DNA of 17,827 bases from a virus: UHGV virus genome UHGV-0159506; one strand, given 5' to 3'. This document shows positions 13,492-17,827 of the stretch, piece by piece; position 1 is the stretch's first letter, and each line of letters starts with the position of its first letter. The notes below the pieces were generated by a model. It did not search any database and was not told the origin of the DNA. It saw nothing but the letters and a program-made list of their open reading frames with translations. The translations under genes and the position numbers were made by a program.

Positions 13492-14241
13492 TGGTTATCC
13501 CTCAATAAAAGTGACATATTTATTAGATTGCGGTGCCGGGTTCCTCCCGGTGTCCTTTGGCTGGTTATCCACCGTGGACGGGGAAACAAGGAGAAATGAA
13601 TGGACTGATATAACCATTTCCCCGCGTGCGCTTAGCCGCATTCACCGCAACGGAAAGAGCATTCTTGGTGGACCTGTAGATTGGGATATGAACCCGTTAC
13701 AGGAGAATGCTCTTACCTTTTACGTGCTCCGTTTCGTGGAGCTAACGGCGGGTGATCGGGCCGCACCAGACTGGACTTATTTCAGCGTTATGCTCATGCC
13801 AGAGAATCAAACTGTGATGGTCGGTGCTGAACTCCGACACAGGGTTGTAGCAAGCCCCACAAAGCGCGCACTACTGTAGTTGCGGCACATCAGCCTGTGC
13901 ATTCACCACAATGTTGAGAACACTGGTTGTCACGCTGCAACGCAACATTTATTCGTAGATTGGGATATGACCCCGTTACGCCAGTGTTCTCAACGTTGTA
14001 GTGCCGGTTACGGTTCCGGCCAGGCCTCTTCCTCAACGGGGTGTTCTCCATACGGACTACCGTTTATTGGTCGTTCCTGCGGTTTATGTTGTGAAGCCAG
14101 ATGCTTATCTTCTGGTTGCTTCAAAGAGCTGCACTTCATCACAACGGTAAGAGCACTGATACGGTTGGTTTTTGCCTCCGGATCGACTTGCGTCTTGTGT
14201 GCTGGCCCGCTCATCGCCAATGCTCTTACCTGTTGTGTTGG

Positions 14242-14314
14242 TGCCGATTAACGGACTCGAACCGCTGACATCCTGCTTACAAGGCAGGCGCTCTACCAAC
14301 TGAGCTAAACCGGC
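14242..14314 (-). tRNA. tRNA-Thr (anticodon UGU)
   Basis: Manual fold: acceptor GCCGGTT/AATCGGC, D-arm GCTC-AGTTGGTA-GAGC, anticodon stem CCTGC/GCAGG with loop CTTGTAA, T-arm with TTCGAGT loop. It is separated from tRNA-Asn by about 2 nt. Confidence 0.8.
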
Positions 14315-14316
14315 AT

Positions 14317-14392
14317 TGGCGATGGTGGATGGATTTGAACCATCGACCCGTTGATTAACAGTCAACCGCTCTAACCACTGAGCTACACCATC
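14317..14392 (-). tRNA. tRNA-Asn (anticodon GUU), CCA encoded
   Basis: Manual fold: acceptor GATGGTG/CACCATC, D-arm GCTC-AGTGGTTA-GAGC, anticodon stem GTTGA/TCAAC with loop CTGTTAA, T-loop TTCAAAT, discriminator G followed by CCA. Confidence 0.8.
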
Positions 14393-15047: not shown

Positions 15048-15077
15048 ATATTACACTAATAAATTTATTAGAGCAAT
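15048..15077 (-). promoter_or_regulatory. sigma70-type promoter overlapped by a palindromic pair of C1 operator sites
   Basis: The minus strand reads ATTGCTCTAATAAATTT, a 17/17 match to the P1 C1 operator consensus, at 15061-15077. An overlapping 15/17 site lies on the plus strand at 15050-15066. The -35 TTGCTC, a 17-nt spacer and the -10 TAATAT are read off the minus strand. The methyltransferase stop codon is embedded in the operator. Confidence 0.6.
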
Positions 15078-16978
15078 ATGCCTAAAACGTCATGAGCAAC
15101 ACCTCGAGTGTCCCCCTTACAAGACACAGAACGTCTGGCAAAGAGAGGTTCCACTCTGAAGCCACTGTCCTGATAAAGCTCTCTGATGTTTGGCGCGCCA
15201 CTGTTAGTAATGAGTACCTTTGCACCTCGGCGATGAGCATCCGTCAACAGAGACACCAGGCGTTTTTGCTCTTCAAACTTAAAGTCATGACCGGAATAGT
15301 TCGTGAATCCCTCTGTATTTGGAAGCGGTTCATACGGCGGATCGCAAAAGATGACATCTCCTTCTCCGGCAGCTTCAATCACCGCTGCAAAATCACCGCA
15401 TACAAACTCAGACCGCCCTTCCGCACCGAGGAAGGCTTCCATCTCCTGTAATGGAAAATGCGTAGACTTATACTTCCCATACCCTACATTGAACTCACCG
15501 GCCTGGTTGTAGCGCGTCAATCCATTAAAACAATGTCGGTTCAGGAACAAAAACGCCGCTGCGCGATGTAAATCATCATAGACTTGTTTGTTAAACGCAT
15601 TCCGTACTGCCAGGAATCCCTCCTGGGTGTTGTAGTCCAAGAAGAAACGATGTGCCAGAGTGATAAGTGAATGCGCCTCGCGTTGCAGAGTCTTGTAAAA
15701 GTTAATCAGGTCAGCATTCACATCATTTAGCAGATTTTCCTGGTATCCGGCATTCATGAAGACAGCTCCGCCACCGACGAAAGGTTCAATCAGGCGCTTC
15801 CCTTCTGGCAAATAGCGAAAGATTTGTTCCAGAACACCAAATTTTCCACCAGCCCATTTGAATATGGACCGTTCGAATTCTGCCGCTGGTTTAACTTTTC
15901 GCTCTTTTGTTTCACTCCCTTCATTCTGCCGACATGCAGCCTTGGTAATCCGATCGCCAATCCAGCGCATTACTGGTATTGCCATACTATTGCCGATCGC
16001 TTTGTAACGCGGTCCGTCAGCTGCAAGCATCGCGGCCTCTTCTTCGCTTAAATCAGGATAGTTATTGCGAAGGTATGCCAGTTCATCTGAAGAAACTTTT
16101 TTACGCTTTTCCGTAGGGATCAACGTATGCCCATCAGGAAAACCTTGCAGCCTTTCACATTCGACAGGGGTAAGACGGCGTATTCTACCGTCGCCGAGCA
16201 ATACAATTGGTGCTTCATGGTTACATGTCAAAGTTGGTGCCGAATTATCGGTTTTTATCTCAGCCCCTCCTTGCCCATGTGCCATGGCAACTATGTTTGT
16301 ATCATCGCAAGATCTGATAGCGATGTTTGAAGTATATCTGGTAGTTTCCTTCCCCTCGCCTCTGCTCGGCGCAATATCCCGGCGCACGCCTTCGAACTCA
16401 AAAAGTACCGTTGCGGGATCGAGGTCTGTTCGAGCACTTGCGACAACAAACACGCGTCGGCGTCGTTGTGCCACTCCGAAGTATTGGGCATCAAGGATTC
16501 TCCAGGCCACTTTTCGCTGCGGTCCATAAATACAACCACACTGCGGCCACTTTGGAGCATGGCAACCGGTTTTGCCATCCCACCGCCAGAACGCGTTACT
16601 TTTTCCTGATTCAGGTCGATCACCTGGTTCAAATGGCGCATCTTCTCCAGCCAATCCGGCAAGGAAACATCCGAAGGCGTTATCTGCCGATGACAAGACT
16701 CCTGGGACATTTTCCCAGACAATAACGGCTGGTTTGAGAAATGACTCAGCCCGTTTGTCGTCAATTGCATTTGCAAGCTCCACATACTTTAAAGTTAGCG
16801 CGCCACGCTCATCATCAAGCCCACCACGTAATCCAGCGATACTGAATGCCTGACAGTTATGGACCACCGCACCATTGAGGATATAGGAATGATCACCTTC
16901 GACTTCTATGTTGTATACAGTATCTAGGCCTACCGATTTAAACTCTTTGACTGTTCGTAAAAGCATTCCGTGAGCCAA
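15068..16978 (-). CDS. dmt: bifunctional DNA methyltransferase: C5-cytosine domain (motifs IV-X) fused to Dam-like N6-adenine domain; the first ~41 codons are the intein C-terminal segment
   Basis: Track ORF of 636 aa. C5 motifs present: IV (CQAFSIAG), VI (ENVPG), VIII (QRRRRVF), IX (RLTPVECERLQGFPD), X (IGNSMAIPV). Dam motifs present: KWAGGK, EPFVGGGAVF, DPPY. Motifs I-III are absent because the N-terminal part lies upstream of the intein. As drawn, the ORF begins at a TTG four codons after an in-frame TAA; the ATG five codons in (MLLRTVKEF) is a plausible start. Confidence 0.8.
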   Translation of the reverse strand: MAHGMLLRTVKEFKSVGLDTVYNIEVEGDHSYILNGAVVHNCQAFSIAGLRGGLDDERGALTLKYVELANAIDDKRAESFLKPAVIVWENVPGVLSSADNAFGCFLAGLAGEDAPFEPGDRPESGKSNAFWRWDGKTGCHAPKWPQCGCIYGPQRKVAWRILDAQYFGVAQRRRRVFVVASARTDLDPATVLFEFEGVRRDIAPSRGEGKETTRYTSNIAIRSCDDTNIVAMAHGQGGAEIKTDNSAPTLTCNHEAPIVLLGDGRIRRLTPVECERLQGFPDGHTLIPTEKRKKVSSDELAYLRNNYPDLSEEEAAMLAADGPRYKAIGNSMAIPVMRWIGDRITKAACRQNEGSETKERKVKPAAEFERSIFKWAGGKFGVLEQIFRYLPEGKRLIEPFVGGGAVFMNAGYQENLLNDVNADLINFYKTLQREAHSLITLAHRFFLDYNTQEGFLAVRNAFNKQVYDDLHRAAAFLFLNRHCFNGLTRYNQAGEFNVGYGKYKSTHFPLQEMEAFLGAEGRSEFVCGDFAAVIEAAGEGDVIFCDPPYEPLPNTEGFTNYSGHDFKFEEQKRLVSLLTDAHRRGAKVLITNSGAPNIRELYQDSGFRVEPLFARRSVSCKGDTRGVAHDVLGILL

Positions 16979-17827
16979 TCTTGATTTACGTTACAATGTC
17001 TGCGGGCAGATTGTTACCTGATAATAATTCCGTTGATTTACCACGCGATCCTCGATCACTTTTTTGGGCTCAACTTCAATAAAGCTGACCGAAGAAACAT
17101 AACCACAAGTCTGTGACAACCCCGCAACGCCCCAAGCAAGCGCAGGACTAACACTATTAATTCTAAATCCCGCTTTACCACTTGGTGTCCCATCAGTATC
17201 AAGATAGCCTTGTAAAAACACATGACGCAATGGATGCGACATCACCCATGCAGGGATACGCTTAGCATGGCTTAACTCGCCAAAATGTTCATTAAGCCAA
17301 TTGGCATAACACGTATCATTCAAGGTTACTTTGATGCGCCCTCGGATTTCGCTTGCCACGGAAAATATGTTTTCTGGTATGCGGCAATGAAACTTTCTCA
17401 ATTTCTGGCAATTTATGCCAAAAACAACCGCCTTCTTAGATTTACCTCTCCATCTCCTAATATATCCATCGCCAACATAAGCGCCCGCAAGATACATAGC
17501 CTGTTCTTCAGACAAGAACCGAGAACAAATATCTGGAGATGCAATATTGAAATTAGTTAGAGCGCACCATTGATATCCCGGCATATCACATGCTGCTCGC
17601 CATTCCGGTTCAGACAACAACTCTCTCTTAAAATATGTGCCATTTTTCCGGGTGTTTTGGGCTTTCCACCGAACAGCCAGGAAGGGATGGTCATTGGTTG
17701 TTCTTATACCTAAAGGCTGCCCAACGGCATTAAGTAACCCCGTATTAGCTATTTTTGAACCAACTCTTTTTACTTGTTGTAACCGCCCGAGATGACTGAC
17801 TACGTAATCGCCAGGGCAAACATCTTC
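16856..17827 (-). mobile_element. intein (Hint blocks B, F, G plus LAGLIDADG endonuclease) inserted at the PCQ catalytic cysteine of the C5-methyltransferase, carrying an internal in-frame stop
   Basis: Blocks F/G (VYNIEVEGDHSYILNGAVVHN) are immediately followed by the +1 Cys of CQAFS (motif IV). The intein start (Cys1) and the N-extein lie beyond the right edge of the window. Confidence 0.7.
16991..17827 (-). CDS. intein N-terminal splicing region plus double-motif LAGLIDADG homing-endonuclease domain (5' end beyond window)
   Basis: The track ORF 16991..17620 is an artefact of start-codon choice. My translation of the same frame is open to the window edge and contains the block-B-like GIRTTNDHPFLAV, followed by LAGAYVGDGYI and FLQGYLDTDGT. 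The ORF ends at the TAA at 16991-16993. Confidence 0.7.
   Translation of the reverse strand, partial: EDVCPGDYVVSHLGRLQQVKRVGSKIANTGLLNAVGQPLGIRTTNDHPFLAVRWKAQNTRKNGTYFKRELLSEPEWRAACDMPGYQWCALTNFNIASPDICSRFLSEEQAMYLAGAYVGDGYIRRWRGKSKKAVVFGINCQKLRKFHCRIPENIFSVASEIRGRIKVTLNDTCYANWLNEHFGELSHAKRIPAWVMSHPLRHVFLQGYLDTDGTPSGKAGFRINSVSPALAWGVAGLSQTCGYVSSVSFIEVEPKKVIEDRVVNQRNYYQVTICPQTL

Follow-up and report, generated by a model that had tools for sequence, protein, structure and literature searches.

The locus described here raises the question of what becomes of a phage gene when the intein that interrupts it acquires a stop codon. At one end of the virus genome UHGV-0159506 (17,827 nt; "the window" hereafter means this whole stretch of DNA) lies a dmt gene of the P1 type that carries an intein with a nested homing endonuclease. 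Its minus-strand frame is open from the window edge at 17827 down to a TAA at 16993-16991. The frame reopens four codons past the TAA (at TTG 16978 or ATG 16966) and then runs on for another 632-636 codons until the normal dmt stop (15068-15070). An initial annotation, made from the sequence alone, had offered three explanations, namely a decaying intein that inactivates the methyltransferase, a split arrangement capable of trans-splicing, and a sequencing error. We conclude that dmt was probably inactivated by a recent nonsense mutation in a decaying P1-like element, and that the window copy is probably a pseudogene. Judged against its relatives, it represents a degenerate member of a widespread, apparently actively homing family of inteins in C5 methyltransferases.

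An intein at the catalytic cysteine of Dmt

The insertion site is fixed because intein-free P1 Dmt reads GTP/CQAFSIAG (slashes mark insertion or splice points). The same ...GTP/CQAFSIAG... is found in the intein-free Dmt proteins of the P1 reference, P7, and SJ46, and the P1 reference dmt reads GGTACGCCG on one side of the insertion point and TGTCAGGC on the other. In RCS47, vB_EcoM-Ro157c2YLVW, and the P1 isolate OP279344, 341 extra residues (C-FTAGHMV...VVH-N) occupy this position within a single uninterrupted open reading frame (ORF). The insertion reads GGTP/C...HN/CQAFS and separates the Pro from the catalytic Cys in motif IV of the C5 methyltransferase.

The element is a class-1 intein (Cys1, TxxH, ...HN, Cys+1) in which a LAGLIDADG homing endonuclease is nested within a Hint domain. 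The C-terminal intein profile TIGR01443 (intein_Cterm) matches at 30.8-32.9 bits against a cut-off of 15.6, and the endonuclease profile PF14528 (LAGLIDADG_3) matches at 35-36 bits against 22.5. For PF13403 (Hint_2), scored on an intact homologue, the 28.5 bits just pass the gathering score (28.4). An AlphaFold2 model of an intact homologue (P0001) has a mean predicted local distance difference test (pLDDT) value of 82, and its best Protein Data Bank matches by Foldseek are PI-SceI, TliVMA, PI-PfuI, and PI-PkoII (E values of 4e-18 to 2e-9); I-SceI and I-OnuI are also among the fold matches. The Hint fold is assigned because the model matches PI-SceI, TliVMA, and PI-PfuI and because the intact homologue scores with PF13403. 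Intein residues 300-341 also align with residues 96-137 of the Spl DnaX mini-intein.

The window contains 972 nt of the intein, which match nt 52-1023 of the intact OP279344 intein at 99.6% identity in an ungapped alignment. The contig terminates within the intein, which places the N-extein (77 aa) and intein residues 1-17, including Cys1, beyond the contig end. In copies at least 99.3% identical to the window intein, the N-terminal junction reads GGTP/CFTAGH. Across 15 homologues, Cys1 is invariant, and the block B Thr and His, both LAGLIDADG Asp-Gly pairs, the terminal Asn, and Cys+1 are likewise invariant or nearly so. The initial annotation had recognized the motifs, the frame, the single in-frame stop, the 37-aa segment beginning with Met, and the HN/CQAFSIAG junction correctly as far as the window shows. 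Its identification of an intein with a LAGLIDADG endonuclease is borne out by profile scores above the curated cut-offs (TIGR01443, PF14528, and PF13403), and alignment to intein-free P1 Dmt agrees with its placement of the insertion, directly before the motif IV Cys. As it had also noted, the stop leaves one ORF with the N-terminal intein part and the endonuclease and another with the C-terminal intein part and the methyltransferase.

The product of dmt is, to judge from its domain matches, a bifunctional C5-cytosine/Dam-type N6-adenine methyltransferase of the P1 Dmt type. The exteins match PF00145 (80.7 bits) and PF02086 (189.7 bits; residues 375-608 in the downstream ORF). The C5 domain has the PCQ catalytic Cys and the ENV motif; its motifs I-III belong to the N-extein, outside the window. 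The window Dmt is 98.8% identical to that of OP279344 over 919 aa, and apart from the TAA there are no stops or gaps.

The Dmt of RCS47 is 82 aa longer than the variant common to the window, OP279344, and many plasmids. The two forms differ between the C5 core and the Dam domain, presumably in the target-recognition region, which makes dmt a mosaic gene quite apart from the intein.

Nearly every member of this C5-methyltransferase intein family has Pro as its -1 extein residue (GGTP/C). A Pro at -1 is generally unfavorable for the first splicing step. The inteins of this family may be adapted to this residue, or they may splice slowly.

Intact copies and the wider intein family

Intact forms of the intein are common. 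At least 80% of the query is covered in 152 of 5,426 complete Escherichia coli genomes, nearly always on P1-like plasmids, and these carriers amount to roughly one third of the 408-483 E. coli genomes that have the P1-like region. The intein also matches 129 plasmids in PLSDB (Escherichia, Salmonella, and Shigella). The comparison included 39 further full-length copies, drawn from phage records, metagenomes, IMG/VR, GTDB genomes, and E. coli plasmids. All 39 are ungapped and 99.3-100% identical, with a frame that is uninterrupted through intein and exteins, whereas that of the window copy is broken by the TAA.

More distant relatives share the site. Homologues at 47-56% identity occupy it in prophage C5 methyltransferases of Pasteurellaceae, and homologues at 27-33% identity occupy the same PC site in actinobacterial enzymes. 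When 1.84 billion cluster representatives were scanned exhaustively with HMMER, 538 relatives emerged at an E value of 1e-10 or below. Among the 148 newly returned proteins of the 150 best matches, 126 have the xxP/CF junction of motif IV and 122 have xN/C[QTS]. Hundreds of C5-methyltransferase clusters carry related inteins at this PC site.

Two of the Pasteurellaceae loci resemble P1 in their surroundings. The inteins of Rodentibacter pneumotropicus QXNH01000011 (locus L046, 3900-6206) and Mannheimia haemolytica CP151240 (locus L047, 4001-5837) are 47-48% identical to the one studied here and occupy the same PC site. Both lie in HP1-like prophages and adjoin rdgC and mazG-like genes, an arrangement reminiscent of the uhr-hrdC-dmt module in P1.

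Among P1-like plasmids, dmt alleles with and without the intein occur side by side. Over the 39 loci, pairs of sequences differ on average at 0.58% of nucleotides within the intein and at 4.1% within the N-extein; for the C-extein, the figure is 1.4% next to the intein and 4.4% in the distal part. The intein is 2.5-7 times less diverse than the flanking extein, a pattern that suggests recent homing sweeps with co-conversion of the near flank.

The initial annotation had supposed that an intein in this methyltransferase family was new. The intact copies in RCS47, Ro157c2YLVW, OP279344, 152 E. coli genomes, and 129 plasmids, together with the same-site relatives in hundreds of C5-methyltransferase clusters, do not support this. 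A survey of actinobacteriophages (bioRxiv 10.1101/2025.01.02.630785) lists C-5 DNA methylase among previously reported intein hosts, and inteins in N6/N4 methylases were reported by Kelley et al. in 2016 (PMC5050341). Our literature searches found no paper describing an intein in the dmt gene of P1, RCS47, or Punavirus, and GenBank and RefSeq label the intein-bearing genes just Dmt or "Dam family methyltransferase." The P1 Dmt intein itself seems to be undescribed in the searchable literature.

A private stop codon and the candidate restart codons

The stop is private to the window. The window intein differs from that of OP279344 at four positions, three of them inside 29 nt: all 39 other copies read AAA..TCA..CAT (A/C/T at the variable positions), and the window reads ACA..TAA..CAC. 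With a 76-nt query centered on the stop, none of the 153 E. coli records and 127 plasmids recovered is more than 96.1% identical (at least 3 mismatches). The best value corresponds to 3 mismatches; therefore, no record shares any of the three private changes. We sought the TAA haplotype in phages, PLSDB, the 5,426 E. coli genomes, IMG/VR, JGI and ENA metagenome contigs, and GTDB, and found it in the window only. The residue replaced, Ser296, lies within an SRKSR linker motif that is conserved in homologues down to about 47% identity.

There are five private single-nucleotide polymorphisms (SNPs) in dmt of the window, and the chance that three of the five would fall inside 29 nt is about 0.003-0.01. 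Such clustering suggests one multi-nucleotide event or one path through the assembly graph. Gene conversion from a divergent intein homologue was rejected as the source of the cluster: at 47-56% identity it would bring many more changes in 29 nt, and no homologue has Thr-Leu-stop at the site. All other copies have an out-of-frame ATG, within cATGg, 5 nt ahead of Met305. The synonymous SNP at 16970 (coding-strand T>C) abolishes it, which makes Met305 the first ATG past the TAA in the window.

In the AlphaFold2 model, the stop (P0001 residue 373, intein residue 296) falls in the loop that leads from the last element of the endonuclease domain to the first strand of the C-terminal Hint lobe. On this model, the break is at the canonical endonuclease-insertion or split site, and the idea of a split intein is structurally reasonable. 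The segment from Met305 to Asn341 (37 aa) aligns with the 36-aa C-terminal half (IntC) of the Npu DnaE intein.

The sequences in front of the two candidate restart codons are less favorable. At neither TTG 16978 nor ATG 16966 is there a Shine-Dalgarno sequence above background: their anti-Shine-Dalgarno energies (Table 1) compare with a median of -5.8 kcal/mol for 13 real starts in the window, and of random start triplets, about 50-75% do at least as well as these two. With no ribosome-binding site at either start, only low-level re-initiation is plausible. The protein predicted from the ATG start occurs in one contig from one sample.

Probable loss of Dmt function and its alternatives

Taken together, these results suggest the following course of events. 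In intact alleles, the precursor is presumably one chain from which the intein would splice out, restoring the PCQ motif, and the endonuclease would presumably spread the element into intein-free dmt alleles via homing. In the window copy, function is presumably lost: the C>A change in codon 296 would end translation past the endonuclease domain and leave a 372-aa fragment, consisting of the N-extein, the N-terminal part of the intein (IntN), and the endonuclease, that would be unable to splice. The remaining 1.9 kb (IntC, the rest of the C5 methyltransferase, and Dam) would be left without a ribosome-binding site of its own. The most likely outcome would be that Dmt is lost or nearly lost. 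P1 needs methylation at its packaging site, and host Dam could supply it.

We favor decay because the TAA is private, the downstream ORF has no Shine-Dalgarno sequence, and the contig contains a second inactivating lesion. The latter is a private 22-nt deletion (CACCGGCACCGCCGACAACAGG in relatives) at 8263/8264, within gene 24 (about 7611-8374, plus strand), which shifts the frame after about residue 223 of 261. The 22 nt are retained in all three aligned relatives and in the best E. coli matches, and the deletion junction is absent from IMG/VR. In P1, gene 24 is concerned with the baseplate or tail stability. Broken dmt genes occur in other P1-like plasmids as well, since the Prokaryotic Genome Annotation Pipeline (PGAP) marks dmt as a pseudogene in CP012497 and CP083706. 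Elsewhere, broken copies of this intein family are isolated; they include one with a frameshift in block F (L053) and a Mannheimia copy with a degraded C-extein.

Several observations weigh against this conclusion. It concerns one sequence, in which a true mutation and an assembly or consensus artifact would look alike. The stop lies exactly in the loop at which split inteins are canonically broken, and an in-frame Met nine codons on would yield an IntC of typical natural length. The C-extein is undamaged apart from the stop, as it would be in a functional arrangement, and as is equally expected of a very recent mutation. Finally, the loss of the out-of-frame ATG near Met305 would suit re-initiation. 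This last change may be a coincidence, yet it is the sole observation that fits an adaptive split better than decay.

Among the three options of the initial annotation, decay is thus the one that gains from the private TCA>TAA change, the missing Shine-Dalgarno sequence, and the second lesion. Error comes second. In that case, the real molecule would have TCA and an ordinary contiguous, cis-splicing intein, and the TAA would stem from a low-coverage consensus or from a wrong path through a strain bubble. The contig is a node of roughly 10x k-mer coverage that ends inside the intein, as is typical of a break caused by strain variation. The three private SNPs, none of which was found in any other sequence, lie closer together than the assembly k-mer and would travel as one bubble path. 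However, an Illumina-type consensus at 10x is unlikely to contain three substitution errors, and a bubble path would still mirror a haplotype in the sample. Moreover, ordinary private SNPs occur elsewhere in the contig, as in a truly diverged lineage, and the 22-nt deletion in gene 24 is atypical of base-calling error. We consider an artifact unlikely.

It is also conceivable that the window copy retains partial function without splicing. Low-level re-initiation would yield an IntC-tagged truncated chain whose Dam-like domain methylates GATC, while the endonuclease of the N-terminal fragment would keep the element mobile. We regard this as quite unlikely. The Dam-like (D12) domain is a separate and complete module by its PF02086 score, the whole endonuclease domain with both LAGLIDADG catalytic Asp residues lies upstream of the stop, and start codons follow 12 and 24 nt past it. 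These starts are the ones without a Shine-Dalgarno sequence, however, and a Dam domain beside a truncated C5 domain may neither fold nor act. Transcriptional polarity (premature Rho-dependent termination) would be likely over 1.9 kb of poorly translated mRNA. In this scenario, C5 activity would be gone because motifs I-III are missing from the truncated chain.

The most consequential alternative is a nascent split intein, in which translation would stop at the TAA and re-initiate at Met305, 24 nt on, and the two chains would trans-splice to give active Dmt as a first step from a full-length to a split intein. Such an origin is proposed in the gene-breaking model of split-intein origin (PMC2677866) and in the actinobacteriophage survey (10.1101/2025.01.02.630785), which puts forward the idea that split inteins arise when an endonuclease region in decay acquires a stop codon; the latter also anticipates the split concept that the initial annotation had put forward as new. 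The position of the break, in the loop that joins the endonuclease domain to the C-terminal Hint lobe, the alignment of the 37-aa IntC with that of Npu DnaE, and the private synonymous SNP that deletes a competing ATG would all suit a split. So would the condition of the C-extein and the splice-site residues within the window (block B Thr/His, block F, His-Asn, and Cys+1), all of which are intact. Against this, the initiation signals are wanting at both starts, and the window copy stands alone among about 320 relatives, without spread or conservation. The 190-aa endonuclease remains fused to IntN, unlike in known natural split inteins. The net charges of the putative IntC (-2) and of residues 1-295, comprising the Hint-N lobe and the endonuclease (+14), are opposite, but reversed relative to those of DnaE. 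The second inactivating lesion in the contig suggests relaxed selection. We consider a functional split intein highly improbable, and the trans-splicing option of the initial annotation finds no support.

Natural counterparts of a split form were also sought. A scan of 1.84 billion protein representatives for N-terminal halves ending at the linker gave singletons only and no conserved split form; in one, the frameshift of L053 lies inside block F, and in another (L052) the stop is followed by only 49 nt of contig. Two candidates were rejected. The Rodentibacter protein P0024 has its annotated start in the intein linker, but its DNA is a continuous intact ORF in which an internal Met was used. 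The M. haemolytica protein P0011 (439 aa, 578 contigs) might have been a conserved N-terminal half, but it comprises the whole intein followed by a degraded C-extein, a case of decay.

Recoding or an alternative genetic code can be dismissed, as the 20 other P1 reference proteins aligned to the window show no in-frame stop, and TAA is not known to be recoded in enterobacterial phages.

Features of the window and neighboring genes

The window is one entire metagenome contig (ENA ERZ508014, NODE_1303_length_17827_cov_9.9) and comes from a single sample only. It is a segment of a P1-like (Punavirus) phage-plasmid, 98-99% identical to P1-family records, with the gene order pmgS ... gene 24, 6, 5 ... 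dbn, ban, tciABC, three tRNAs, dmt. An Rfam scan of the whole window found the three tRNAs and nothing further. The intergenic stretch at 14166-14224, beside the tRNA-Thr gene (tRNA-Thr/Asn at 14239-14392), is densely altered: compared with every relative examined, it has private substitutions and small insertions. The features of the dmt locus are listed in Table 1.

Table 1. Coordinates of the dmt intein, its flanking extein, and the interrupting stop in the window
Feature	Position	Strand	Remarks
Intein residues 18-341 of 341	16856..17827	minus	Translation; Pfam and NCBIfam matches; runs off contig end
Block B, TTNDHPF	17681-17701	minus	Thr and His (TxxH) invariant in aligned homologues
LAGLIDADG motif 1, LAGAYVGDG	17465-17491	minus	Catalytic Asp kept
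LAGLIDADG motif 2, LQGYLDTDG	17189-17215	minus	Catalytic Asp kept
Three window-private substitutions	16970..16998	minus	16998 (AAA>ACA, K294T); 16992 (TCA>TAA, S296stop); 16970 (CAT>CAC, His303 synonymous)
In-frame TAA, intein codon 296	16991..16993	minus	TCA>TAA; Ser in all other copies
TTG, Leu301 codon	16976..16978	minus	First mechanical start of downstream ORF; 12 nt past stop; anti-Shine-Dalgarno -0.7 kcal/mol
ATG, Met305	16964..16966	minus	First ATG past stop; 24 nt past stop; anti-Shine-Dalgarno -2.6 kcal/mol; start chosen by gene caller of source assembly
Putative IntC, Met305-Asn341 (37 aa)	16856..16966	minus	Blocks F and G, HN end; TIGR01443 32.9 bits
Block F, VYNIEVEGDHSY	16883-16918	minus	
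Block G, NGAVVHN	16856-16876	minus	Ends in His-Asn, followed by +1 Cys
+1 Cys codon, catalytic Cys of C5-methyltransferase motif IV (PCQ)	16853-16855	minus	Alignment to intein-free P1 Dmt; PF00145 match; QAFSIAG next
Dmt C-extein: rest of C5 domain and D12-class (Dam-like) N6-adenine methyltransferase	15068..16855	minus	Intact to normal stop

Significance and relation to known inteins

If the split reading were true, the window copy would be a natural intermediate between a full-length and a split intein, in a genetically tractable model phage. The evidence instead favors an ordinary nonsense allele. Two uses of the intein are independent of the stop codon: it could serve as a marker of recombination between phage-plasmids, and it could possibly act as a post-translational switch on phage methylation.

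The closest known systems are the intact Dmt inteins of RCS47 (FO818745), vB_EcoM-Ro157c2YLVW (MH160767), OP279344, and the E. coli and Salmonella plasmids. They are the same element at the same site, with 341 aa and 99.3-100% nucleotide identity. Theirs is an uninterrupted ORF, whereas the window copy has TCA>TAA in codon 296 and two adjacent private SNPs. PI-SceI (Sce VMA1), TliVMA, PI-PfuI, and PI-PkoII likewise combine a Hint domain with a nested LAGLIDADG endonuclease and share the Cys1/TxxH/HN/Cys+1 chemistry. In contrast, identity to them is only 11-16%, and here the host is a phage C5 DNA methyltransferase with Pro at -1. The C-5 and N6/N4 methylase inteins of actinobacteriophages (10.1101/2025.01.02.630785; PMC5050341) are also LAGLIDADG inteins in phage methyltransferases, and the actinobacterial homologues at 27-33% identity share the PC site. 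The present host is instead a Punavirus of Enterobacteriaceae with a fused C5 and Dam extein.

Natural split inteins such as Npu and Ssp DnaE, gp41-1, NrdJ-1, and IMPDH-1 (Dassa et al. 2009, PMC2677866) are likewise broken between blocks B and F and have an IntC of about 36-37 aa. In fractured genes, both halves are adjacent and in the same orientation, as in the window. The differences lie in the endonuclease, which in the window is fused in frame to IntN and is neither absent nor free-standing, and in the C-terminal half, which has no ribosome-binding site or other control element and belongs to a singleton rather than a conserved locus.

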